64,000 nucleotides of DNA from Ascidiella aspersa (Eukaryota), in contig OZ004608.1 in assembly GCA_963924565.1 (NCBI GenBank), positions 7,688,001 through 7,752,000 of the forward strand, given 5' to 3'. The position numbers and the translations under genes were made by a program. How positions within the stretch are numbered: the stretch's first letter is position 1; every line of letters begins with the position of its first letter. The notes under the pieces were generated by a model. That model worked only from the letters and a program-made list of their open reading frames with translations. It did not search any database and was not told the origin of the DNA. Shown here one piece after another: positions 19,701 through 61,731 of this stretch.

Positions 19701-22700
19701 CTCAGACCGACGACTACTGAACTCATCAGTCAACGCCAAGGCTGGGCCCTCCGGAATGTTGATGGTTGCTAGGTGGCCGTTATTGAAACAACAACATACC
19801 TAGCTTTTAAACTTACAACGAAAGCATGACTTGGCGGTGTGTTGCCGAAAGCAAGTACGTTCGTAGTGTCCAGCCTCAATCTCGTAATACGAAAACTGTA
19901 GGAAAACATATTAGTGAAAAATATTTATTTAACGCATTAGTGAAAAACTTTTTGTCGTTCCAACAAATTTAATAAAGCAATTCACAATTAAGAATACCCA
20001 ATATTATAAACTGGATCACCAATACTGTAATCACGCTTTGTGTGCTGTATTTTATCGACATATTAAGTAATTACGTTTTGGTGTAAAGTACTGCGATTTT
20101 ACCCATAAATTTATTCATCTGAATCAATGATACTCAAACTGTGTGCCGCGCAGCGGTTTGTAGTTTTGGAAAATACTACAAAATGCATATTGATAAGTAT
20201 TCTAGAACTAGACTATAATTCACACTAGCAAAAGAAAAAAATAAGATTATAAAATTCACAATTATCTTGCAGGTGTATAATATTGTGGTATAATAATATA
20301 GTTTGGTAAGGAGGTCTGACGCAAATTGTGCTTCAAGTTTTCTAAGTGTGCTGCAAGCTAAAGAAGTTTGAGAAGCACTGAGTACAAAGTAGGCTACTCT
20401 TCTTACCAATACACATCTAAATGTAAGAAGATAGTTTGATCAAATGGAAAATGTTAGCTAAATTCGATATTACTTAGCATGAATGTAATTTCCTGTTTTT
20501 AAACTATAGTTGGCGTACAAAACATAGGCCTACAACACATTCTCTTGGGAGCTTTAAACAGTTAAACTTAATATTTGTTGTTAACTTTACCGAAAATCCA
20601 TTCTTCTGCCAGAAATTAACACTAAAAGTTAGTGCTTAAACTGGTGGATTCTACTTCACATTTAATACATTTGGCAAAAAAACGAGAAAATTCCAACATG
20701 TTTAAGCAAAAACGGAAGAAATTGCTTGCATCTGCAGCGACCTCTTGCGGTAATATATTACTAGTTATTAAATGTTTTTTTACTTTCCAATATCGATGTT
20801 GACAGTCCAGTGCGAGAAAAACAATCTCATATCTCATTTCAAAGTTACTGTGCAACACCTTTGATTGATATATTTTTTGTAGAATTACATTTGCCAGAAG
20901 AGCTCTACAAACTTGATATTTTTTGTAGGTTAACGTGTTACACACCTAAACAAATAATGTGCTATGCAAAAATCGTTTTAGTCAAAGCTGACATCTAATG
21001 ACTAGATTTTACGAAAAGTGATAGGATATTTTTCTCTGCAAATCGGACACTTACATAAAAACAACTTTAGTGATGCATGCTGTCCTTTGCGTATGTTAAA
21101 AAAACACTGATTACGAATTAACGTAAGAAGCAACAAAAAGTTAAAGAGCCTTGATTGGTTGTTTCTTGTTATTGCGAAAGTTGCTTTCAACATTACGCAA
21201 AATACATACGCCTGAAACCTGCATCTGTGGTAAATTGTCACATTTCGTGCTAGATGACTAGGTTGTTATTACGCCTGGGGGCAAACGGCAATTTAAATTT
21301 CTCCTGGAACGTAAATGGCCGGTGCAGAAATGTATGTAGTTTCCTGCAGATCGAACGAAATACAACGCGTTTTTAGTATTTTCAAGCTCGATTTGAAAAC
21401 TCGTCTATTGAATGGTCTGCGAAAGAGGAGGCTGTGCTAACTTTTGATGTGATATAAATGAATTATTTTTACTTTCTTTCGCTACCAATAGTAATGTCTT
21501 GTAAGTTTCCCATCCAAACTTAAACTTCCACATAAAAAACTGCTGAAAATTTGATAAAGATACGTTAGCAAATTAACAAACATCTTCAACCGTTGACAGA
21601 TTTAATAAAAAAAGTCAATCAAAAACTTACAATGTTAAACAATTATTACAAATGTTGTAATAGCCTCTGTATGCTAAAGTGCTTTTCAGCGAAACTTTCA
21701 ACTAATCAATTTTATTTTCTTCCATACATTGCTTCCGCCTCTCGAAATCAATACGTTTCTCGACTAAAAAAAACACTTACCATTGAGTCGCAGGTTTCCG
21801 TTCAGGCAAGGCCGTTTTGGCGGGCCCCGAGGCTATCGCACCGTAACTGGAAAAGTAGCGACAATAAAGCGATTACGCGGCGCTGCGATACATTCCCGTC
21901 GGCTGTAACGCTTGGAAAACACAGTCCAACTTGCGTTGGCCAAGCTCGTGCCATGTAATGCACTGTTTTGACTGCATAAGTTACCTTTGTTTTAGGTTTG
22001 ACGTAAGCTCCGGATATTTTTGGCCATACATTCTCTTATATGATTTGAAGGATGATAATGACTCCATTTGAAGGGTTAGATCACAGTCGTTGTACGAGTA
22101 TATGTTTGTCTGTTTCATTCATGCTTCAAAAGTTTCCTAATTTTATTAACTGAATTTGCTTTGAACGATAGAATTGGTATAAATTAAAAACCTTCTAAGA
22201 AAATGTATATAGTAAACATTTTTTTATGCAGTTTGATCGCCAACTGAAGAAGTTCAGTTTGTCATAAGTTGTTCGCGCTACACATTTAATGTGTCTGGCC
22301 GTTCAATATGTATCGCATCATTTTCTTTAAATGTTTATTCCACGTTTGAATATACAAAAACCGCACACCCTGTCTAGTTTGATATTATTTTCATTCTTTC
22401 ATATCTGAAGAATATTATTATTTCATTATTTAGTTTTTTTTTTAATTCACATCTGTGCAATAATATTAGCAAATAAATAATTTACTACACCAGCTTATTG
22501 GATTTTGTATAAATATATTTTAAATATATAATGATATATTTTGTTATGTAAACTTTATTAGATTATTGTTGAAAAACATTATTGTCGTAGTTATATGTCA
22601 CAACAAATTTACCCTATCTACCCCAACACGTAAACACAAATACAAGCAATGTCATAGTTTTCTGTTTCTGGTTATTTTTATTGATGATCACATGAATAAA

Positions 22701-23100
22701 CAACGGATCCACGAAGATACTTTGTTTTCACTTCTCGGTGCATCTGAAATTAAATAAGCAAGTATTGAGTGAGACTAATACACTTAATAATTTTGTTATA
22801 AAATGATAAAGTTGATATTTATAAACGTAAGGTTGTAATAGGAAAAGTTTTATTTTCTACCCACCTTTGTTTATCACTACTCCTCTTGTTCGAAACAATT
22901 TTTTTATCTGAGAAACAAGTTAATTGTGTTAAAGTAGAATATGTTTCTTTACCTCTAAGGCAAGCATGTTTGGTTTACCCAGGAGTCTGGGATTTATATT
23001 TAAAGAGATATAAAAATAGCAGTCCACAAGTCGGGCGACCCAAAGTATTTTGCAGCATGTTTTAAACTTAAACGTTTAATGTAATTTAAATTAGCAAAAG

Positions 23101-23373
23101 TTATAGGGCTAAAAGGAAAAACAACGAGGACAGATATGTCAACAACGCTATTGAAGAATAGATATTACCTGCTTTGGAGTTGTTACCCAATTTCTTTTTA
23201 CAGGAAGCAATGCATCTGTTGCTGCACCCTCGGCCACTACCAAAACCACCGGACGTTTCTATACAGGATATATAGCATTTGTCAACGCATTCATTTAAGG
23301 TCTCGGCTTTTACGCTATGATCAACTAGAAGTAGGAGGCCAAGTAAAAGGGTGGTCATAACAAACTTGTTCAT
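23101..23373 (-). CDS. Small secreted, probably GPI-anchored cysteine-rich protein (90 aa), family not recognised
   Basis: MNKFVMTTLLLGLLLLVDHSVKA signal peptide; CVDKCYISC and CSNRCIASC; hydrophobic C-terminal tail ending at the stop. The ATG directly follows acceptor ttttcag|. A 76-nt intron (23374-23449) with donor AAG|gtaagt links to a non-coding exon starting near an Inr-like TCAGTT (23481-23486). AATAAA at 22849-22854 (minus). Confidence 0.8.
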   Translation of the reverse strand: MNKFVMTTLLLGLLLLVDHSVKAETLNECVDKCYISCIETSGGFGSGRGCSNRCIASCKKKLGNNSKAGNIYSSIALLTYLSSLFFLLAL

Positions 23374-23589
23374 CTGAAAAACATGCAAGATTTTACATAG
23401 TTGATTAAAGCGGTTCAACCACTAACACATGTCAATTACTGACACTTACCTTGTTGTTTCAACTTGTCAGTTGTGGCGCCAACTGAGGCATTTCAGCACA
23501 ATTTAAAGGTTTTAAACAATGAGCTGACCTTTGGTTCGTAGAAGTATGTGGAGAATGGTAGTAACTGATTGACACCCAAGCAGAAAATT

Positions 23590-24255
23590 AAGTAGAAATA
23601 CTGCGGATTTGTTTATAGCGGCATTTGAAATCGTTTGTACATTGTACTATTTATTTTTTTTTAAATCTGAATAATATATTCAGCAGATAATTTACTAAAA
23701 CACATTGATGATTTGTTTTTATTTGTTTTTATTCAAAGGCAAGTTTGAACTGTTAAATTATTTTATACTATTTTCTTTCTTTGAACTCTGAACATTTCTG
23801 TCAGCAGATATTTTACTAGAAACTTTGCGGATTTGCTTTCATTGAAAGAGGCAACTTTGGATAGTTGCATTATTTTATGTTGTTCTCTTTCTTTGAAATT
23901 TGAACATTACCATCAGCAGATAATTTACTGGAAACATTGGGGAATTGTTTTTCATATAGGCTAAAGTCAACTTTGACTAGTTGGATTATTTTGTATTATT
24001 TTCTTTCTTTAAAATCTGGATATTAATATCATCAGCAGATTATGTTGAGGACAATTGCGGATTTGCTTTTACTCAAAGTCAACTTTTAATAATTGCATTA
24101 TTTTATACTGGGCTACGTTTTTTCTTTGAAATCTATACATTAGTATCAGTAGACAATTTACTAGAAACATTGAGGATTTGTTTTTATTTAAAATCAACTT
24201 TGAACAGTTCAACTTTTAAACAGTTGATTTCTGATTAAAATTGGGGATTGTTTTT
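23590..24255. repeat. Degenerate tandem array, about 115-120 bp unit, 5-6 copies
   Basis: Anchor cag(c/t)aga at 23681, 23802, 23914, 24033 and 24147, each followed by ..gaaacattg.ggatttg..caacttt. Confidence 0.85.
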
Positions 24256-27240
24256 TTGACGTTGTTTGTAACTTGCAAAGAAAGCCCCGGCTATTTTTAA
24301 CTACAAAATGTTCGAGTTGTGATGTGCTAGATCACAGTCGTTGTAAAAGGTTGTGTTTTTTTGTGTCTTTCATATTTTAAAAGTTTATTTTTTCCAATTA
24401 TATGAAATGTATTTGCTTTAAACGATAGAACTACTGTGGTTTATTAGCTAGTTTTATCGCGTTACAACGGTTGAATTGCAGCAACATCAATATACATCAC
24501 ACATTTTTTCTTCACTACGAGAAACGTCTACGCAAAAAGCCTATTGGACGCCAAGTAGTTTCCTTAAAGTAAAACGCCTGGCTGTTCATTGATCATTTTT
24601 CGTCTTGACATTAAAGATGGCATGCGGAAATGGCATTTCGTGTTTTCAGTGCTTCTCAGGTTAACATCTCTTTATTTGTGAAAGATATCTTGATTTCACA
24701 CCATGTATATATAAATAAGCTACACCAGCGCTATTTAAAATTTTTAGTTTTGTTCACCCCTAGCATCCATCTCCAGATTTCATTCACCCTTGTCTTTTGA
24801 TATGATAAAATTATCTCGTTTATATATAACAGCACACCCGGAATATCCGCCCTGCTTGCAAGCTATCATACATTTTTGACGGTTCATCCTTATTCACCTC
24901 TTTTGGTGGGTTCACCACTGCAAACATTTAATTCACCCTGGGGTAAACTATTCACCTGATTAAGAAACAAAGGGCTACACTATACAGCCCAGAGGTCCAC
25001 TCTTATATTTTTAATAGTACGGCAAACCTAAAACATAAATAGCTGTTCAGCTTTCTTTCAAAACGTTTCTTTATTTAGATAAAACATCTCGTTGCTAAAT
25101 CTCTTTTATTGGTGAATCGACGCGACAACAATAAAATAACAGTATGTTGTTCAAAGAAAAAAGGCGGGTAGGGTATAATAGGCGACATTAACGCATTTTG
25201 AGTAAACTTCTGCTGTTCAGGTTTGGAAAGACAGCTTTGGGTGACGAAACGAAACTAAGTTTATTTATAGGTGAAACGAAAAAATCGGCCAAAGGGCGCG
25301 GGCGAAAAAACAAACGCCAACTAAAATCCTGGGTACAGCGACAAAAATTAGAGTCGAACGCTAGAAAAAAGGCACAGGAATTGCTCTTGGAATCAAAAGG
25401 AAAAATCACGCGAAAATAAAGACGAGGAAGTCTGTAAGGCGTCGCAATTGTCGGCAAACTGCTCTGTTGGAAATTTTCTTTTGGCGGTTTTAGTGCAAAC
25501 TTTTTCTTTGCGCGTGACGTTACAAATCGGTGAACGTTACGTCATTAAAGGCATGGGGTAAAAAACGAAGCGCCGCTTAAAGCTCCCACGAAACCTTACT
25601 TATGAAGATTGGGGATGGCTGATACTTCCAGTCTTATTTTGATACAGGGTTGTTTAGGCATAAAGTTGGACTGTCCAATCCGATAACGGTCTTTAACATT
25701 TAAAACGAAAATAAATTAATTACATTTTAATAAAGATTAGTTGTTACTTCGAAAATGAACCTATTATTCCTGACCAACACATCCCCAGGAGTCTAAAAGT
25801 CGCGTATGGACACTTACTGTACAATGGAAGAAATAAATGACCTAAATGTTATCGCGTTAGTTGCAATACCAGTGTATCGAGTACGAAAACCTTAATAGCT
25901 TAGGGATTAGATTCAAAATTATTGAACATTCCTATCCTAATAGGCCGTATTTTCCATCTCAACAGGAAATATTTCCTATCTTAATAGTTCATCGTACAGA
26001 TGCTGCTTTTTAGCTTTGAATTTTTGCGACACGTTGCTAAAAAAATAAACTCACAACAACAACACGCCCAATCGTCACAGTCTAGGCGACCTTTTACCTA
26101 CAAATGTGCTACTGTACACAAGTCCTAAGAAAAGGCAATCAAAACATCGACAACAAGCACCTCCTACTAGCGTTCGAAGGCGCAATATTTTCGAGCCGCG
26201 AGATGGCAGTGTCGAGCTGGGCGAACGCAAGAAGAGGCGGCGACTGCAGAGGTGGAAACAATAAGTGGAGTGAGTAGAGTAAGAGAGGTTGCGCACGTTT
26301 ATTGCATTAGTCCGGTTCGTACACACAGCTGCTAGAAAGGCCCCTATTTTAAAAGTTGTTGAACCAATGGCGTTATTACTATTATCAGTGGTTCTTAAAA
26401 GTTATTGAGTATCATTACCCTGGGGAAAACTTGATAGACTTCAAATAATTAACTACTTATTTGCGTTTATTGTCCATATTTTTTTCAATTTACCAATTGT
26501 ATGCTGCAACTGCTTGCTGCTAAACAGCAAGTAAGAAAAATCCAAAGTTAAAATTAACGCCAGAAAAATAATGAATTAGCTTTAGGGGTTATTATCAACA
26601 GTTCAAAAACCACGCGTTTTCGTATCTTCAGCCAAAATAATTAAAAATTGGGCCAAAAAGCTATAAAAAAATTATAATCGTTATCTTGAGAGCGCGTATC
26701 ACTCCACCTATTTCGAATTTTCGCATTTGTAAACAGAAAATGAAAAATTCGATACGATTTTGAGCTGAAGAGCGGTCATTCCTAGCAACAAGAACATACA
26801 GAACGGAGGCGGAAAATCAAGATGATTAGCAGCGAGCGGAGAAGTGGTTACAAAACTTACAGCTGATTCACAGTTCGTCGAAAGTTGTCATTTCGGATGA
26901 AAAACGAAAATTTCACCGACTTTTTGAGTCGCGTTTTCTATCGCTGTTTTAACGATCGGATCATCGTCGAAGCGCATCACGAATGACGTCACATAAATGG
27001 ATCGCGTGACGTCACAAAAATAGATCGCGTGACGTCACAGAGTTTGAAAGGGCGACCGGAGGGCTTCGGCAGCGGTTAGGCGTGAAACCGCTCGGTCGCC
27101 GAAATTTAGGTGAAAAATATTCCACGTTTTATCCAGTGAGGCTTTAAAACGTGACTTTTCACAGCAGTAAAAACTCTCTTTTAGAGAAAAAGTCCAAAAG
27201 TCGATAACTTCTGACGTTTTTGAACTTCGTTTCCTGCTTG

Positions 27241-27371: not shown

Positions 27372-30300
27372 CTGCAAAAGAAAGAAGATTTAATGAATAT
27401 ACTGTTTCTTCCAGCCTATGCCAGGGATTGTATCAATTATAAAATTGTTAATTTGATAATCTGTCGTTGCCCTGATGAAGATTTCCAGTAAAGGTTGTGG
27501 AAATGTCGGTACATTTATTAATAAAAAATGTTTGCCAGAAGGAAATTTTTTAATTAAAAGTAGATTTATTAAAATTGCAATTTAGGCTGATGCACAATGT
27601 CAAAAGGCTGAAGATATATAACGGTCTGCTGAAGATATATAACGGTGTAAAGTAGATTGACAAAAAACATCGGGTTTGACTGTAATCAATTTAGATCTAA
27701 AAATAACCTTTTTATTATATGGAGAAAAGATCAGTAACTTACAGTGATCCAACAGTCAAAGTTTCGAAAACAAACAATGAAGTAATGTTATACCAGCTTA
27801 AACCTACGTACACATAATTTGCCAGTGGAAACCTGTTATATGATTGTTATAGCTTGTAGTAATTAGTATATTAAGAATCTATACAAGTATTAGCTGCTAT
27901 TGGAATTAGTTATGTTTTTTGAAGAGGGACCATATTTTGCCGAATTCTAAAGAAACGAAAAAATTTATTTAACATTTAGTTATGTTTCTAGATGAACTAC
28001 AAGTCCAGAATATGAATTGTTGAAGGGGCTGAAACATTTATAATTTAGAGAGATGCCTAATTATAATTTATTCGAAACAAACATATTTTACTTGAATCAT
28101 TCACATTTTTGTCATGAAAACAGCAATAAACAACAATTCAAAATTAAATTGTACGCTGATTCTAGTAGAGGTTACTAACCACAATTTAATTTTTTTTCCT
28201 TACAGAAGTAGGTATTATACTTTTGAATGACTCTTTATTCCTTTTCAACAATAACTCTTTATTCATTTTTAGAGTTATTTTAAACGTTTAAAATGATACC
28301 TACTTCTGTATGGACTTTGATATTCTTAATACGTATTACTCCAACCTCCAACCATTAGGCTTCATACTTTACCTTGCTTGGGCTTGATAACGCTTCCAAT
28401 AGAGATAGGGGCAGATGCAATGAAGGTTGGTGAAGGGTGAGCCACCGACATCTCTGAACTAGTGGTCGAGGACGGCGACACAACTGCACGATGCAAAAAC
28501 AAACATGTATGGGTGTGTCATACATGACTACATACACACCCACGGGAAGGACACGTGGTTGGCAAATTAGATGCGGTTCAGTTTACACAGTGTCTAGACT
28601 CTAGATGGTTTTCAACATGCGATGTAAAAAACGTTTAAAAGACTAATTATGCAAATACAATTGTGATGATATCAATTTCGATGTTGTGATGCTCTAGTCT
28701 AAACAATCATTTTAAGACAAAATTGTATATATATTGGAAAGTATATACATTACTTGGTAGTGTTAAATCTAAAACATACGATCTTATTTGCGATAAGTTC
28801 ATAGCTCTTGCAATAAGCACTGAATATTTTAGAAACAAAGCAATGCCCGAAGCCTTTGACTCATTTCGTTTTTAATGACTCACATAAATATTTATCGTTC
28901 AAGTTAACGCACAAAAGCCGAGTTTACGAAAAATGATTGGGAGAAAACCATTAACATTGCAGTTACCATTAAAAACAAGTGCAAAAACAAATCTGTTGGC
29001 TACAGAACAAGGAGATGTTTTGTTGATAAACTGAAAATGTGAAATAATTGCATTTTTATTTAAATTTGAACATTTGCAAATTTTTGAGCAGCTAACCACG
29101 AATTTCAAATTAATCACAAGCTATTGACAAATGCGCGTGATCATGACCCGAGATGACAAAATAAGTCCATAGACAAAACTATAGCAGCTACAACCCACCG
29201 TCCATCCCGATATGCCCGGCCGCCATTCCGGCGAAGTCTCCCATTACGGCAATGGTGGTCTCGCCAGTTGCTTGAGCCACTCTGTGTTCGACCAGGTAGA
29301 ACATGTACTCGTCGTAGAGGAGCCGGATAAGGTGGAAGCTACCGAAACTCTGGGCCGAGCGAAGCGTCAAGTCTCGGATAACCATTGAGCTGCGCGGCAG
29401 GTGAATAAGGGGTTAATACATGTCTGTAAACGCGGACTTATAAGCAGTCCTGTTTAGTTTAGGCGTTATAAAGGACTCCTTATATATTAGCTGCGCGGCA
29501 GGTGAATAAGGGTTAATAGATGACGGAAAATGCGAACTTATAGGCAGGATTGTGGACTTTAGGTGTTATGAAGGACTCCGTGAAATGGCCTAAGGGTTTA
29601 TGGTTGGCGGTAAAGTGCTTACTTATATACAGGGCCGCGGAGTTGCTGGAGTCGGACTCGGGACTCGAGTAAGACCACGTAAGACTACCCGAGTTCCGAG
29701 CCCGAATTTGAGAATCTACTTTCACAAGCAAAGCTATTAAGACTGCTATATGTTCAGGACAAGTAACGAAAACTATAAATCAACCAAAAGTCGCTCATTC
29801 GTATAATACACGGCAAATAATTTCCACAGCTTTTCAAGACAAAAATACAGATTTAGGACAAATAATAAACCTTCAAGTTATTTTATACAATGACTTCAAA
29901 ACATATCTCAGACAAATAACCTAACAATAGGTTACTCAAATGGCTTATTTATTTAGAAAAAAAATAATTTCCATCAGCCTCGTTAGAGACAAAACAGATT
30001 TAGGACAAATAACCCTCGTATAAATCAGGCAAAAGTCACTAATTCGTATATTACCAGACAAATAATTTTCACGTCAAGACAAAAACTACAGATTCAGGAC
30101 AAATAACCTAACTATGTTTCAAGCAAAAGTCACTAATTCGTATATTACCGAATAGCGGACAAATAATTTTCTCGGCCCCTTAAAAACCAAAAAAAAATAC
30201 AGATTCAAGACAAATAAGCTAATTTTAATAAAGCAAAAGCCACTCATTCGTATATATTCAGAGAAAAACAATCCCCATCGGCCCTTCAAGACAAAAAATA

Positions 30301-33300
30301 CAGATTTAGGACAAACAATCCAGCCACAAAAACCACAACCCACCTGTAGAAACACCACTTCAACAAGAACTGACGCGCAGCCTTGGCGAAGTTGCTGGCG
30401 CCCTCGTGCGGTTGAAGCACCTTGGTGACGACGCTCTCCAACCAGTCGGCCCACTGCTCCAGCGTTCGCTGCTCGGACAGCGCGACCTTGAAGTCGCCCT
30501 CAAGGTCACGAACCAGCGCGTCGTCGCACTGGCAAACCCACGATGCTTGCTCCTGTGAAACGATAAGGACAGATTGAGAGTTTTTGTGGAGTGTCATTTG
30601 TAAAGAATGAGAGATTCGTCTTGTTCAAGCAGAGCCCATGAGACTTGTTCGGGTGAAAAGTAAGAGAGTGGTTAAAATAGAGAGTTTTGTTTGTTGAAAT
30701 GTCATTTGTAAAAAACTGGGATCCAAAAAAGTTAAGTAGGACTCATGAGGCTTTGTTCTGGTGAAAAGTTAAGGAGACGGGTTAAAAAAAAGTTTTGTTT
30801 GTTGTAAAAACTGGAATAAAACACAAGAAAGATATATATATTTATTTCGCCAACAAAGGAATGATTCAGTCGAATTAAGATATACTAACGATGTCTTTGT
30901 TGTCGAAATATATAATATATCTTTTAAGATCTGTTAATTGTGTCTGACCTGAATTGCCAGCTCTGTTAGTATTTTGAACATACAGAAGAAGTTATCACCT
31001 TGAGCGTTTCGAATATCTAAGAGTTGAAAAATAGATTTTCGAAACGTTTAAAATGATATCCACTTCTGTATAACCTTTGGTATTCTTACTACGTCTTACT
31101 ACAAGCTCCAACCATTATGCTCCACAACAATAAACAAAGTCAAGTTTCTTTTACCTGTACGTTTGAGAAGTCGACCCGGTTTAGATCTGCCAACATCTGG
31201 TTGATTTGCGACACGTTGTTCAGCACGGCTCTTGCGGCCTGCGCCAGGTGGTTGAGTGACGTGTATCTACGAAGGGTTTGCGAGAAAGCCGACACCGCAG
31301 CCACCTGTCAATCAAAAGTAGTTGTTATATTACCGAGTCGATTTTTTTTTTCTTTACCAGTGCTCTTCAACTTCTTTTTGTTATACACTTTTAACCAGTG
31401 TTGTAAACAAGTCATTTTGAAATGACTCAAGTCAAAGTTAAGTTTTTTGAGTAAATAACAAGTCAAGTCCAGTGATTTGTCGGAAATACTTTAGCCAAGT
31501 TAAGTCATTTTGCCCAAGAAATAGGGGCTTAAGTCAAGATGCAGTGCCTTCTTAAAGTATACAATTAAAATCATGGGACAGGATGATTACAAATAGTTTT
31601 CTGTCAAGGTTGCAACATGCACAAATCTTGGCCCAATCTGTATATCCTGGTATCTTTTGTCAGTTTTATACCATAGCTTTGATCAGGTATATACTTCTTT
31701 AGTTTACTTCCTAAATTATTTGTCCACCAGTCATTTTGTTTCCAGGTGATTTCTTTCATCAACTGGTTTTGTTCGATTAACATACACGAAATCAAAATTG
31801 AAATAGGTAAATTTTAAAGAAAAATAAATAACAAAGCATAATCTTGAGACAGCTTTACCTTGATCCGCGACAAATCGGTTGGGATTTCCCCCTTTTCGAG
31901 AGCGGCGGTGAGGTTTGCTTCGAGGCCTTTGGCGAAATTTCGAATCGCTTGGGTCAAAGCGCCTTTAATGTAAAACAATTGTTATTATATCAAGCAAAAT
32001 TGCTGGCCAGAGCCTGGATGGATGTCACATAACGAAGAAGGCGTGAAAGAAATGCCATAACAAAAAAAAATCATTTATAGGATGTGCTTCTATTTTCCTT
32101 TTTGCAAACCTAAACTGGAAACATCACTCAAACCGTTGACGATGCCCAATGCAAACCTAATAGCACTTATATTGTACTACCTACTTTCTCTTTTATGCAA
32201 AATTTGAAGTGAAAAAAAAAGATTTATACCGTGTCTCTACTTTTCATTTTGGCAACTCCACTTGTCTTCCTAACTTCCGATTTTTTATCCATACTCACTT
32301 GGAATTGGTCGCAGAACGTCTGGAATGAGCACTTCGACGAGGCTCTGAAAGATCATGTGATCACTGTCCTTGACCCAGCGCTGCACAGGAGGCCACGAGC
32401 ACAGGACGAGTAGTTTGTGACGAGGAAGACGCATCTCGAACCCGTCCTTGCTGCATATGAAAAAAAAAGATTCAATTGGAACAAGAAGATTTAATTTTGC
32501 TGGAGTATGGCGATTTAAATTTGCTGGAGGAATATTAATAAGATTTTAAGTTTTCTGAAGGAAGAATAAAAAAATTAAATTTGCAAGAGAAAAAACAAGA
32601 TTTAACGTTTCTTAGAGGAAAAGAAAAATATTTAAATTTGCTGCAGGAAGAAATAACAAGGTTTAAATTACCTGGAAGAAGAATAAGATTTAAAGTTTAT
32701 GGAGGAAGAAATAATAAGATATAAGTTTGTTGGAGGATAAAAAAGAATCAAATTTTCTAGAGGAAAAAGAGGATTTAAATTTGCCTGAGAAGAAAAAGAT
32801 TTAAAATTGCTGGAGGAAGAAAAATATAGTCTAACTTTACTGATGAACAAAGAAGATTTTACCAAACAAGATGATATACTCTAAGAGGGTACTGACTACT
32901 GAGTCTTGCTGTTTTTTTGCAATTTTTAATTTACAAAAACGTTTCTTGTATCATCTTCAGTTAAACATGATGTCGATCTACTCGACCTATTTGGCTTTCA
33001 AAGGCATTATCAAGCTACATTACATATCTGGACATAGTGCACTGAAGTATGGGTGTCTATTGCTTTGTCTCTTACAAAAAGTTCGATGAAAATAATTGGG
33101 TCGCCGAAAAAGGTAGAGAATTACTAAGTAATTTTAACTAACCAACTAAGTTGGCCATAAGTCTAACTCTATGCTTGGTAGGCAACTTACGTAATGTTGG
33201 GCTCGTCTGAGTCGAAGTCAGCTCGCCAGAACGATAACCAGAGCGTCTCGACCATGTTGAACTGGAGGTTGACAATCACGTCCAGGACGTTGGAACAGTG

Positions 33301-36300
33301 CTCCCTGTAGAGATCCTCCAGCACCATCAGGTCATCCTGGAGGAAAGAGAGGACTGTTTAGCTGGAGGAACGACTCAACAAATTTTTGAAAATTTTAAAC
33401 TGGGATTCTGAGTAATTAACGCAATTCGAAATTCACGAACAAAATGGTGGCGAAAGATCGGTTGGAGCGGAGAGACTAAGATAATAAAGGGTTGGTTGAG
33501 AAGTTTTCGCGGTGTTTCTCTGTACACTATCAAGCCTTTCGTTTGCCACGGCCCAGCGTTGTAAACAAGTTGTTTTGAAATGACTTAAGTCCCAGTCAAG
33601 TCATTTCCTGGACAAAGAAGCGGGGCTGTTTAGCTGTCCGAGTGACTCGACAAGAATGACTTCACATTTCTTAAAAATTTCTCTGTTGCTTTACACATTT
33701 TCAAAATACACAGTGCACTCATTGTTGTTTTGCAAACACTTGACGTTCCTTCTTTCCAGAACTATGTTGTATAAAACACCCTCACACTTTTCGCAAAAAA
33801 ACACTTACACTCTATAAAAAACGCCCATATTTCACTGCCCACCATCATTTCAATATTTCTAATCAAGAAGCAACTTAAAACATCACTTATATTTACTTTC
33901 ATAGCAAAAATAAAAATTCGAGTAAAAACCTATTTAATTTAACAACAGTAAAACAAAAACCCTGTTGCTTACTGCTAAAAATATGTTACAGAATTCATTA
34001 TTTAAAGTTAATTAGGTAGAAAACAAAATTCCGGCTCAAAACCTTACATTACGATTTGTCCAGGTCACAGACCGAAAGCGGAAAAAAGGTTTGGCAATCA
34101 AACAACTTGTTTAGTAAAATTGTAAAAAACTACACTTGCACTAACACTCATATTTCGAACCGTTTCCACATAAGCCTACTCCCAACAAAACAGGAATAAA
34201 ACAAAGGCGCTATCTTACCGCTGTAATATCGCGAGGCATCGGTGGGTCGTCTGCCGTGTACTGAATGGGGTCGAGGTCGGGTAGGGCCTGGGTGGCGTCC
34301 CCAAGGTACCTTTGGTGTTCCTGGGCTTGCTGCTGGGCCTGGTCGCCCGGGGCGCCGGCCGTAGGACCCCCCTGGGCCGCGGCCTGGCCTCCCATCTCAC
34401 TTTTGTTGGACTCGTGTGATGCCTGGATCTGTTTCCTATGAAGAAACGGTAGAAATGTTGAGTTTTGACTTTTTGCTTTTGAAGGCGATATGTTTTAATG
34501 CGGTGACAGTTCATACTCAATTTTTGGAACACTTTTAATGGATCAATACAGAAGTGGTTAGCCTTGTGTGAATGTTTCCAAGAGAACAGCTGGAGGTTAC
34601 AGTTAGACGTAGTAAGAATATCAAGCCTACAGAGAAGTAGGTATCACTGGATCCGTTTCCTAGAACGTCGCAAGGATCTTTCCTTTTTCAAACTTCTATA
34701 TCTTTTTAGACTCATTACAATGTTTTAAACACACTTTAAGCATATCATGATAGTATTAAGCGGTAGAAATGTTGAGTTTTGACGTTTTGCTTTTGAGGGC
34801 GAGATGTTTTAGCGCGGTGATAGTTGATCCTCATTTTTTAAAACACTTTTTTTCGATAGTAAGAATATCAAGTCGATACAGAAGTAGGTAGCCTTTTGTG
34901 AATGTTTTGAGTAAATCTTAAGATAATGGCTGGATGTTGTAGTTAGACGTATAATGAATATCAAGCGCATACAGAAGTTGGATCACTGGATCTGTTTCGT
35001 TAAACGTCGAAAGGAAAAAATCAAAGGTTGTTTGGAAGATTTCGCTTTTAGTTTGTTTTTGAGCGAGAGATGTTTCAAGTAGGTGTTTGTTCTTCCTTTT
35101 TAAACCCCTTACAATGTTTTGGGGACACTTGAAGTGTATTGTGCGAATTTTAAACCAGATATTTTTCAACGTTTACAAACACCTAGATTTTTCAAACGTT
35201 TTTTGACTTAGTGGTAGGTAGTATTAAAAGCAGTTTGTTACTTTTTAGACCTTTTAATAATATAAATGATTTTTAGGCAGTTAGGCTATATCCTTGCAGC
35301 TGTGTTGCTCATTTTTAGAGTTATCCAATTTAAAAATTTCCAATTTTAGAAGTTGTATTAGAAACTGACGATACCAAAAACGTGCGAAATTATCTTTCCA
35401 GAGTTACATAAATCTGATTGACCTCTATAAACGTTAAACACTTATATACCGGTTACGTTGCCCGAAAATTCAAAAGGATGAACAGTATTTTAAAAATACG
35501 TCATTTTTACCATTCAAGGTAAATTTATTAAAGCCCATACAGAAATAGGTAGCATTTTGAACGTTTCGAATATCTCTTTATTCATCAATAAAAATTTGTT
35601 CGCATCGTTCAAAAAGATACCTACTTCTGTATGAGCTTTGATATTCTTACTACGTCTTACTACAACCTCCTGCCATTATGCTCCAAAGGTAAATTTGAAT
35701 ACTGAAAAAGATGAAAAACACAGAGGAATCATACCTTCTTCCGTATGTGCTCGACTGTTGCCGCATCGCAATCACGTTAATTTCATCCTGCAGTCGATTC
35801 AGTGGGGAGTTCCCCTTGATGCGGATGCCGTAGTAGTGATACTTGGAGTTTCCCCTGTTCCATATAAAAGAAAATATTTAAAACAACGGAAATTGAGGGT
35901 GGTCTTGGACGTTGAAGTAGCATAAACCGCAAATTAAGGGACAGTTTAGTTTAGAAGCATTTTACTGAAATTGAAGTGTATAACGGCGTCATTTTGGTAA
36001 AAAAAACTTGACTATAAAAAGCAAACAACATTTATTTTAACCATATATAAATATTGTAAAAACTACTTTTTTATGAAAAATAAACGAAGTGAAATTTGCA
36101 AAAACCGTCGTGAATTTGCAAAAATCGTCAGACAATTGCGCTATTAAAAATATAGGAAAAGTGCATTTTGAGTAGAAAAATACGATCTGACAAGAGCAAT
36201 ACATCCCATAAAAATAAAATGTGCAAACTCGCTACTCGACTAAGTAGTCTACCCAGAAATAATAATCCATAGCAAAACATAGATAGTTGATGCTCATCCC

Positions 36301-39300
36301 GAGTTTGCCTAGTTCGGTAAATTTAAAAAAAATAACAAGTATAAAATATATACTGTTTGAAACCAGTGCAATTTTCAGTTAAAAGTATATAAGTAAATTT
36401 TTCGGTTTTATCAAAAAGGCAGGATTGCGTATAACACAGAATCGCAAAACGTAATACAAAGCGACTTTTCTTAAAATCATCTCAAAAACACCCATAAAAT
36501 ACCTGGTTCCGAGTCTTCTTGTGCGCAGACCAAGAAACACGGAGCGCACGAGCTTGCCAAACGAAGCGGCGTTTACGGGATCCAGTTGTTGTTCAGTGCA
36601 GTGCAGAATGTAGTGGTTGTACATAAGCGCACGTGGCAGCGAGACGCCGTCTGAGTTTCCAAAGTGCTCCACAAGCCACTGAACCTAAGGAGATTAAAAA
36701 CGTCTGTTAAGTTCGAGTCTTTTATGATGGTTGTAAACAGGGCTGCGGACTCGGGACTCGAGCAAGACCAGGTAAAACTACCCCCGACGTACGCATGTAC
36801 CAAATTTTGAAACTGTTAAGGCGGCAAATTTGTAAAAAAAAATTGTAAAAGTATAATAGCTATAATAGTGAAATATTTTTTAACCACGTATTGCGGGTGG
36901 ATTAATCATGATACCCATATGGGTGGATTGCAGAATTTTCGCCTTAATTTAGTTGCGTAAATCGGTAAAATACAAGCTGTAGAGCCGGAGCCGGGCTCGG
37001 GTCTCGACGAAATCCTACACTTGGCGGGTGTCGGACTCGGGAGTCGGACTCGCGTTATTTTTACCCGACTCCACAACCCTGGTGGTAAATAGGGATATAA
37101 GTACGTCCAAAACTTGATGTTTTATTTCAATGCCGATATCGATAATATGGACAAAAATATCGCGAATCAATCCCATACCAAATGACGTATCACCGTGCTC
37201 AAACAAGCAAAATAGATGAAATTGTAAGATATAAAGGTATTTTTTTCGTTTAGTAACTTGAAGATGTAAACCTACCATTTTTGATTAAATTTACGTTTCA
37301 AGATAAAATTGATGTGTTGGCTGAAATTCCTGTGATAATTTGGTATTGGATCGGCACCGATGCCACCCGAGTATTGTACAAGTACCGATATAATAACTTG
37401 GTATCGAGTATCGGTTACTATTCGATATTATCGGACATCGTTAGTTGTAAACGCATATGGAAATGTCATTCGTCTTGAAAAATAGCTATGACTTATTTGC
37501 CACACGAGTTTTGTTTTTCTGAAAAAGTTTTTCTAAAAGTTTCTACTAAATGCACATGTCATGGTACAAATAAATTAACAAAATGTTGACGAGGCTGTTC
37601 GTTGTTACTGTTTCAAGTTCCCGCCTATACGTACAATATACCGCAACAAAGACTAACTGATAGTTATCTGTTGTTTACTAGAGTGGGCTATATTTTTAGA
37701 GTCCGATATTCAAGAGTTAAACACTGGATATCCGTCATGGCACAAATAAATTAGAAACGTACACGAGGCTGATTGTGCTTACTGTTTTAGGTACCCACCT
37801 ATACGTACATTAGACCGCAATGGCAACTTACAAAGACTAGTATAGGACGTCGAAACGTCGGAATAAAAAATTACATTTGCCAGAAGAGCTCTACAAACTT
37901 GTTACAAAAGACTAGGTGATGTGTAGTTACATAGGTAGGTTATATTATATTGCTAGACAGACCGTGGTATATATTTAAGAGAACATTTTGGTGCTTGATC
38001 TTACTATTTTAGGTTCCCGCCTATACGTAGTTACGGAAGTGGGCTATATATTGCTAGACAGACCGTTGTAGATATTTAGGAGAACCTTTTCGTAGCCCTA
38101 AATACGCACATTACTGCGGCCAACTTGCTAAGGTTATAACTGCTAATTCCCTGCTGCACCCCAAAACTGACCATTCTCAGCAGAGACCGTTCTAAATATA
38201 TAAGAGAACGTTTCAGTACCCGCAAAACACTTGATATACGTGGCATGACACAAATAAACGAACAAAACATTGACGGGGCTGCATTTGCTTACTGTCTTAG
38301 TTACGTAAAATAGACCGCATCCGAAACTAAGTGACAATTCTCTGTTGCAGTTACAGAAGTGGTCTAAATTTTTCGAATCCGATATTTAAAAGAACGTTTC
38401 GGTACCCCAAAGACTAAGTGATAATACTCTGCAGAAACCGTTCTAGATATTTAAGAGAACGTCTCGGTACGCAAATGTTATGTTACAAATAAACGAACAA
38501 AACGTTGACGAGGGGTGAATGTGCTTACTGTTTTAGGTTCCCGCCGGAAGTGACTTACAGTGGCGGGGGAGGCGCGGGTAGAATGGGACAGGGGGAGGGC
38601 CACGATGCCCCCGCCGTCGTTGCTGGAGTTCTGGATCAAGTAGGTGCTTCCCCCTGGCGAGGTGATGATCTGTCCGACGCCCCCTCCGGCCCCGCCCCCT
38701 GACACACCCCCACCATGGTGGCCGCCGCCGCTGGAGGCGCTCATGCCGAGGCTGGTCTAGAAAACATAGAAATTTCTTTTAAAGAATGAAATGCTTTTGT
38801 TCGTATGTATTGGTTACTAAAATGGTTTTCCACAGAAAAAAAAAATTTAAAGAAACAAAAATGTTTAACATAGATTTACACACACAAAAAATGTGTTTTC
38901 TTTTATAAAGGTTGGTATAGAAAAAAGTAAAAAAAAAAATTTTGATAAAAGTTGGCGCTAAAGATTAATTGTTTTTTACCAAAAAAATACCATAACAGCT
39001 ATTGCGACTGAGTGCGAATTTTCAGCATTGCTATTTTGAGGCACAAAGTGAACTCTCGTCAATAGATACCTAAGCTATATGGGTGAAATTGTAACGCTCA
39101 GGGACTTTTTCTAGGTGATTGCACGCAAAAGTTCTTTACCGTATAAAAGTTGATTTACCGCTAGTTGTTAAACTCCTAAACATTAGTCTTTCAAGACTGG
39201 ACCGCTGCACTGGATAAAAAATCACAGCTGAAATTCCTATATAAATTTCGGTATCAGATCGGCACCGACACCAGCGACGTATCGGACGAGTACCGATACT

Positions 39301-60870: not shown

Positions 60871-61731
60871 ATGGCTTTAGCGATGGCGGTTCCAAGCCTG
60901 CCCAAGCCTCGCCTTTGCGTATGGGCCGACCTTAGCGTTCACGACACCGAACGACTGTCAAAGTGCGGATCATCGCCGGCGCAAACCCGTGTGATTCTGA
61001 GTCAGATCTTCGCAATCGAGGAGTCGCCGCGTGGACGCATCCTGCTCGACCTATACCTTCACGCTGTACGCTTCGCTTCCTTACGCCGCTTCACCGCCGA
61101 GCAAACGTCAACTTTCTTCTCGATCGTCAAACGCACGCACGACGCTTGCGTGTCGACGCCTTTCGGCAACGTGGACGACTGTTTCGCCTACTTCCGCGAG
61201 CTGGTGCTAACCCACGCCGTTCACCGGCCGCCCTGGAGCCTGGAGATTTTTGACGCCGAGCAAGTAGCGGCGCTCTCCGCCTACGTTTTGGAGCACTACT
61301 TTCGCCACTACAAACTCTACAAGTACGCCTTCACGCCAAAGGTGCGTCTAGACCTGACGCTCACCTACGATGGCCTGCCGCCAACGCCGCCTCCGGAGTT
61401 GGAGGATACAGAGGCCGCCGAGACCGCTGTTGACGAGGCGACGCCGCCAGCCGCCGAAGAAGCGGCTTCCGAGCTTGACGACCGAGGGCGGGATTCCAAC
61501 CCACAAGCCGCGGAACCGGTCGTAAGCGAGAACTTCGACGAGCTCGAGTCGTTAGTGCGCAAGGCTGTGAGCTCGCAGTTAAAGCAGATGCACGCGAATG
61601 TTGAGCAGCAACTTGCGGATACGGACAAGGCGATCAGCGAGAAGATACTCAATCTGGAACAAGGCGGCTCTGCTAGTCCGAAAGGCAAGGGCAGGTCGCC
61701 GAAGACCAGCGCCAAGGGCAAGCGCAAATAA
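60871..61731 (+). CDS. CFAP119: Cilia- and flagella-associated protein 119 (CCDC189), 286 aa, CDS in a single exon
   Basis: Motifs PRLCVW.DL, ILLDLY.HA..F...F..EQTS, HDACVSTPFGNVDDCF.YF, HAVHRPP.S.EIF and YFRHYKLYKYAFTPKVRLDLTLTY match CFAP119/CCDC189. The first in-frame ATG follows an in-frame stop; acceptor ttcttctccacgcag| at 60835. Confidence 0.93.
   Translation: MALAMAVPSLPKPRLCVWADLSVHDTERLSKCGSSPAQTRVILSQIFAIEESPRGRILLDLYLHAVRFASLRRFTAEQTSTFFSIVKRTHDACVSTPFGNVDDCFAYFRELVLTHAVHRPPWSLEIFDAEQVAALSAYVLEHYFRHYKLYKYAFTPKVRLDLTLTYDGLPPTPPPELEDTEAAETAVDEATPPAAEEAASELDDRGRDSNPQAAEPVVSENFDELESLVRKAVSSQLKQMHANVEQQLADTDKAISEKILNLEQGGSASPKGKGRSPKTSAKGKRK

Follow-up and report, generated by a model that had tools for sequence, protein, structure and literature searches.

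Turgencins A and B, described from the ascidian Synoicum turgens, are antibacterial peptides with six cysteines and a helix-loop-helix form, connected C1-C6/C2-C5/C3-C4 and ending in a C-terminal amide, with a pI of 8.33 for turgencin B; the available part of that report gives no genes for them (PMC7024374). According to the accessible text of another paper, the antimicrobial precursors of Ciona (Ci-MAM, Ci-PAP and the LCAMP family with its MNK signal) consist of signal, cationic and anionic regions, with signals that are specific for each family and an anionic region that can be short or absent (PMC7387483). Vanabins (Pfam PF11437) are also ascidian, with Cys-laddered helices and, in some members, acidic C-termini, as stated in the sections at hand of PMC9486056, and CiEMa, a blood-cell peptide of Ciona, is given a signalling and not an antimicrobial role in the accessible part of its report (PMC10888236). 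General background came from the available portions of PMC13208793, PMC9966394, PMC10608444 and 10.1101/2025.05.20.655184.

The locus studied here lies in the window, by which we mean the whole stretch of 64 kb that was analysed and in whose numbering all gene positions are given. Its minus strand holds an open frame of 90 codons at 23373-23101 with a signal-like start, six Cys, a Gly-rich loop and a hydrophobic end, exactly as the original prediction had described. Our best explanation is that the gene belongs to a dispersed ascidian family of 15 copies and probably encodes a secreted, disulphide-stapled two-helix peptide for host defence, the hydrophobic tail most likely being spliced out.

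The predicted peptide is like the turgencins in being ascidian, of similar size and mildly cationic, with six non-adjacent Cys, a helix-loop-helix and a Gly-containing loop; unlike them, it has the Cys spacing 3-3-12-3-3, whereas the turgencin sequences, as printed, give 3-4-(7 or 8)-2-3, and it carries neither the CXMAC nor the KKXGG motif. As far as the available reports go, the turgencins are the nearest known ascidian peptides, though not a sequence match. With the Ciona precursors, in the form set out in the accessible text, the family shares a conserved signal that starts MNK, a variable mature part and an anionic C-terminus in most members; unlike those precursors, which are Cys-free by selection, it includes Cys-rich, His-rich, Pro-rich and Lys-rich peptides, and the window copy departs from the Ciona plan in having no acidic tail, its exon 3 being out of frame. 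The signal matches the Ciona MNK-type consensus at 8-9 of 15, which is no better than region-wise shuffles (p 0.06-0.29).

Vanabins carry 16-18 Cys, according to the part of PMC9486056 available, against six in the window peptide, and the signal peptides differ. Three vanabin-family loci with signal-peptide-like first exons are clustered in the same genome (L040-L042, G000:C3:25.47-25.49 Mb). A vanabin link was rejected, as the window peptide is not among the PF11437 candidates and shows no DNA or protein similarity to the three loci beyond Cys spacing (p 0.12-0.68). The peptide is also like the Ole e 6/thionin-like and alpha-hairpinin peptides of plants (PDB 1SS3, Luffin P1, VBP-8), with their hairpin of the CxxxCxxxC-loop-CxxxCxxxC type; these matches are all non-significant (E 0.32, structure atlas 0.76-0.85, Z at most 5.2), and the likeness is most likely a convergent fold.

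Gene structure and the paralogue family

The coordinates of the gene, its surroundings and the loci used for comparison are displayed in Table 1; the genome searched comprised 308.6 Mb in 75 contigs.

Table 1. Features of the gene and of related loci (window numbering unless a contig or locus is named).
Feature	Position	Strand	Evidence or remark
Exon 1, non-coding 5' leader, 5' end unmapped	23450..23516	-	Matches paralogue exon 1; paralogue reads join 23450 to 23373
Intron 1, 76 nt, GT..AG, ends directly before ATG	23374..23449	-	Sequence; joint in 11 paralogue-derived reads
Exon 2, predicted signal peptide, residues 1-23	23305..23373	-	First 22 codons: 50-56 of 66 bases identical to window copy in 14 other copies
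Exon 2, 45-residue peptide, six Cys (3-3-12-3-3), net +3, predicted helix-loop-helix	23170..23304	-	Cys count and AlphaFold2
Likely intron, 60 nt, in-frame, stop-free, GT..TAG	23109..23168	-	Donor conserved in paralogues; pyrimidine-rich acceptor; CCT5 control
Two last codons and TAA stop, completed by splicing or read-through	23101..23108	-	Common to 70-aa and 90-aa models
Exon 3 homologue, 43 nt, acidic frame F-E-Q-E-E-stop, out of frame with exon 2	22865..22907	-	23 of the 30 last bases as in the C4:365 kb paralogue
Exon 4 homologue (3' UTR in paralogues), AATAAA at 22682	22660..22743	-	14 other matches, 79-88% identity
112-bp minisatellite upstream of gene	23579..24240	.	Of at least 70 matches in the genome, all but one lie no more than 3.5 kb from a family locus
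Direct repeat, left copy, ~105 bp	22069..22173	+	78-83% identity to 24320-24430; three weaker matches elsewhere
Direct repeat, right copy	24320..24430	+	78-83% identity to left copy
Family copies on contig C4	363-365 kb, 409-425 kb, 555 kb, 1238-1243 kb		Signal-exon matches
CCT5 63-nt intron, false transmembrane or GPI-like reading	L046:4683-4745 (G000:C3)	-	

The 76-nt GT..AG intron directly before the ATG (23449-23374) is present as predicted, and its counterpart in the C4:365 kb paralogue is 85 nt long and spliced (3 reads). In RNA run X5, of which about 6% was read, 11 reads with 8 start places skip exactly 23374-23449, but all 12 reads at 23346-23354 differ from the window copy by five letters and therefore derive from paralogues. 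At the exon 2-3 joint of the paralogues, 4 loose-end X5 reads run from exon 3 into paralogue exon 2, and at the exon 3-4 joint, 3 reads lead from exon 3 to exon 4 and 4 from exon 4 to exon 3, again with loose ends. These reads show that the paralogues follow a four-exon plan and that the donor at which the GPI-like tail starts is used in their transcripts. Skipping of exon 3, which would give an 86-aa product, was considered and rejected; the paralogue reads include exon 3. The two-exon structure, formerly considered complete, is not confirmed, since two further exons have their homologues downstream with intact splice sites, exon 3 at 22907-22865 and exon 4 starting at 22743. Family-wide, the AATAAA is the one at 22682, while that at 22854-22849, with which the range of the original prediction closes, falls in intron 3 of the four-exon model. 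Intron 2 of the window copy has no other copy in the genome search.

The description of the gene as an orphan fails because the signal exon is carried by 14 other copies, which came out of the paralogue search that had been proposed, run at both protein and DNA level: 11 lie on C4, two on C3 and one, truncated, on C5. Most of them also have the 3' UTR exon and the 112-bp minisatellite in common with the window copy. The hydrophobic N-terminus is conserved across the 15 copies, in keeping with the predicted signal peptide; cleavage is expected after Ala23 from the family alignment. Behind the common signal exon, the mature parts are wholly different (Cys-rich cationic, His-rich, Pro-rich, Lys-rich and a second six-Cys hairpin). 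Gene models were built by script for 12 of the 14 paralogues. A phase-1 donor ends exon 2 in 11 of these 12, at the same position as in the window copy. In nine models the reading continues through exon 3 as an acidic tail (net -5 to -9) up to the stop; a further one has a neutral tail, and two were left unresolved by the script. The ascidian family of 15 copies is apparently undescribed, and its single signal exon precedes at least five mature scaffolds that are unrelated to one another; in the literature available, mostly titles and abstracts and exclusive of subscription papers and supplements, no account was found of this peptide family or of a GPI-anchored peptide of such a kind.

The second six-Cys hairpin, at C4:365 kb (L015:5140-5562 = G000:C4:365140-365562), is Lys/Glu-rich, with a turgencin-like 3-4 spacing in the first helix and a very acidic tail, and it is expressed in run X5. 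With a full spacing of 3-4-10-3-3, it also models as a helix-loop-helix (pLDDT 83.1), though against shuffles that keep the Cys in place its residues show no excess similarity to those of the window peptide (p 0.31). A further match to this hairpin at C2:14.51 Mb (E 0.42) was set aside, there being no recognisable gene at that place. Three other members with the same signal exon (L025:8300-8491 minus, L020:3563-3694 and L033:4273-4473) encode, in this order, a peptide rich in His with four Cys, a Cys-free one rich in Pro and a Lys-rich one of net +16. Broken family copies were also seen, namely L030:6188-7434 without exon 2, L032:4802-4963 with exon 2 alone, and L019:6378-6409, a signal-exon fragment that lacks the ATG.

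The predicted peptide and its possible role

The 45 residues after the predicted signal include 7 K+R and 4 D+E, which gives a net charge of +2 to +3 and a pI of 8.3-8.7, with a computed mass of about 4.2-4.7 kDa, a second helix of net +5 and low hydrophobic moments (0.22-0.26). AlphaFold2, run without an alignment on residues 23-68, returned two helices (4-19 and 25-41) with a mean pLDDT of 82.5, in agreement with the helical hairpin formerly proposed; the six Cys would form a ladder of three disulphides joining the antiparallel helices. Results of the fold searches were all non-significant: Foldseek gave no row at E<=0.001 among 14, VIA-align reached a best Z of 5.9 (an absence there says nothing on novelty), the structure atlas matches were all under 0.9, and the nearest folds were the alpha-hairpinins (Luffin P1, VBP-8), Ole e 6 and Vanabin2 (E 7.6). 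A homology search with the 90-aa frame gave 10 candidates, none at E<=1, and a profile search with an alignment of 11 exon-2 sequences gave 91 candidates and no homologue; the two matches in a library of 1.84 billion sequences were discarded as unrelated repeat proteins, and in Pfam there were sub-threshold rows alone (Tim10, C_tripleX, Ole e 6). The protein, Pfam and fold searches hence produced no match to a described family, as the original prediction had held.

The donor at 23168 would be used in the window copy, with either the near acceptor at 23109 or the ancestral acceptor at 22908. The former would give a 70-aa precursor that ends two residues after exon 2, the latter an 87-aa precursor with a basic 19-residue tail, and both would release the same peptide of 40-47 residues. 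On a matrix built from the family, the ancestral acceptor scores 12.5 against 9.1 for the near one, and therefore the 87-aa form is also possible; the 70-aa form is slightly preferred because it also explains the decay of exon 3. By analogy with the family plan and the turgencin precedent, blood or tunic cells may store or release the peptide, whose cationic second helix may serve to bind it to the surfaces of microbes. A defence role, raised from the start as one possibility, gains support by analogy from the family plan with its acidic tails in 9 of 12 paralogues, and the family members are candidates for salt-tolerant antimicrobials; they also offer a genetic handle on turgencin-type hairpins.

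The weak charge and the low moments of the window peptide are atypical for a lytic peptide, and this speaks for a secreted peptide with some other job on the same generic hairpin, such as a protease inhibitor, a metal or redox binder (mini-vanabin-like) or a signalling peptide. The nearest folds named above, alpha-hairpinins, Ole e 6 and Vanabin2, point the same way, as does CiEMa in the accessible account of it. However, the lack of similarity to the three vanabin loci beyond Cys spacing and the non-significance of every fold match argue against it, and the sister genes, with strongly cationic, His-rich or Pro-rich peptides and acidic tails, have the pattern of defence peptides; we consider another job unlikely.

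The hydrophobic tail and the decay of exon 3

The GPI-like tail begins exactly at the family splice donor (23168), and its DNA reads as GT, a polypyrimidine tract and TAG over 60 nt, the removal of which keeps the frame and leaves the 70-aa precursor. Before the TAG of the near acceptor, 15 of 17 bases are pyrimidines, a level that is reached by 9 of the 6846 AG sites in the window, and on the family-built matrix this acceptor is within the top 0.6% of the same sites. As the accessible parts of PMC1386723 and PMC13746493 gave no ascidian figure for short introns, a control from the same genome was chosen, the CCT5 gene, in which an in-frame, stop-free intron of 63 nt reads as a hydrophobic stretch of 22 residues (KD15 1.96) and likewise has 15 of 17 pyrimidines; that this stretch is an intron is shown by the flanking exons, which match residues 111-177 and 178-241 with no gap. 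Since the tail DNA is built like a short intron and the CCT5 intron reads alike, the peptide is most likely secreted, and the tail is most likely an intron translated as protein. A short polypyrimidine-rich intron that mimics a GPI signal is a trap for sequence-only annotation in ascidians.

The original prediction took the tail for a GPI anchor, in which case the start of intron 2 would be retained and would supply a small-residue omega region, a spacer and a 16-residue hydrophobic end as a cell-surface tether, and exon 3 would have decayed once non-coding. At face value the tail is more than chance: a GPI-like read-through ending is found at 1 of 198 AGGTAA sites, which is the window copy's own, at 0.1-0.4% of 80,196 sampled positions and in 0.2-1% of whole-intron shuffles. 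It is also unique among the 12 copies scored, with a read-through hydrophobicity (KD15) of 2.19 against at most 1.13 in 11 paralogues. Moreover, where most paralogues end exon 2 in acidic residues the window copy has small polar ones, its exon 3 is out of frame, and two motifs that could terminate a transcript of this form are present, ATTAAA at 23080 and AATAAA at 22854. Such a tail being rare by chance, a GPI form made by intron retention keeps a small share of probability. However, the GPI-like look has a simpler cause: a polypyrimidine tract runs up to a TAG 60 nt behind the donor, and what reads as hydrophobic codons is this tract in front of a good acceptor. The CCT5 intron behaves alike, and when the first 70 bases alone are shuffled, such a tail arises in 6-15% of cases. 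The donor is intact; it occupies a phase-1 position shared with 11 of the 12 paralogues for which models were built, and it resembles the donors that paralogue transcripts use. Additionally, the 68-base tail has no substitutions, but a 2-base insertion in one X2 contig removes the TAA stop at 23101..23108, and the contig depth over the tail is under half of that over the peptide exon (28 vs 70 in X1, 44 vs 102 in X2, filters apply), which hints at a second, differing haplotype. The anchor is thus probably wrong, and we regard the anchored form as quite improbable; if it is real, a membrane anchor would here have come directly out of intron sequence.

A bolder reading holds that the gene of a secreted defence peptide gained a GPI anchor from its own intron and lost the acidic propiece, so that a hairpin of 45 residues became tethered to the surface. 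The family would then be a set of cassettes, with a single signal exon and a minisatellite-flanked frame combined with unrelated scaffolds, including the first turgencin-like hairpin genes; we find this reading quite doubtful.

To return to the secreted peptide with its tail spliced out, exon 3 measures 43 nt in the window copy against 44 nt in the C4:365 kb paralogue, and the acidic reading is kept in another frame. The contigs of runs X1 and X2 that cover exon 3 have no gap there, which rules out an assembly slip as the source of the frameshift. The decay would be explained by a stop ahead of exon 3, reached through the 60-nt intron or through retention. None of the listed variants falls within the 185 exon bases, against 11 within the 382 bases of introns 2 and 3 (Fisher p 0.02); this count is from three contig sets and omits sites derived from paralogues, six of them in exon 4 and five in the signal exon, with four further rows outside the count. 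These numbers lend weak support to exon 2 being a working exon under constraint. The 22 X5 reads on the window are all partial fits, and in the roughly 6% of X5 that was read none covers 22778-23263 or the peptide exon of the window copy. That the gene is a decaying, unexpressed duplicate, a young pseudogene, as the frameshifted exon 3, the isolation from the C4 clusters, the missing X5 reads on the window copy and several broken family copies might suggest, is improbable, given that exon 2 keeps an open frame and its six Cys, the splice sites are all intact despite a divergence of ~30% in the flanking DNA, variants are rarer in the exon than in the introns, and only 6% of X5 was read.

Flanking repeats and neighbouring genes

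The upstream minisatellite, which also accompanies family loci on C3 and C4 and is nearly confined to the family, is a possible driver of duplication or a possible regulatory array. The one outlying match (G000:C3:1698808) has no family exon in the 10 kb of sequence covered there. The ~105-bp direct repeat brackets the gene as a cassette of 2.25 kb, and as the introns are kept, the window copy would have originated by duplication at the DNA level.

The peptide cassette sits downstream of an RFX transcription-factor gene on the minus strand (30289-36684), whose DNA-binding and BCD domains are at 36.4-36.7 kb and 30.3-30.6 kb. Further along the window, an intronless CFAP119 frame (CLAMP domain) of 294 codons occupies 60847-61731 on the plus strand, its best named matches being Phallusia (64%) and Ciona (58%), then Clavelina and Styela. 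Intron-split GH6 matches were seen in the genome; with the CFAP119 matches and the three vanabin-family loci, they mark the host as an ascidian, which we read as a phlebobranch. Finally, at 21780-21790 on the minus strand, at the edge of a GC-rich patch, an ATG is directly followed by a GTAAG donor, which is possibly the first exon of the next downstream gene.
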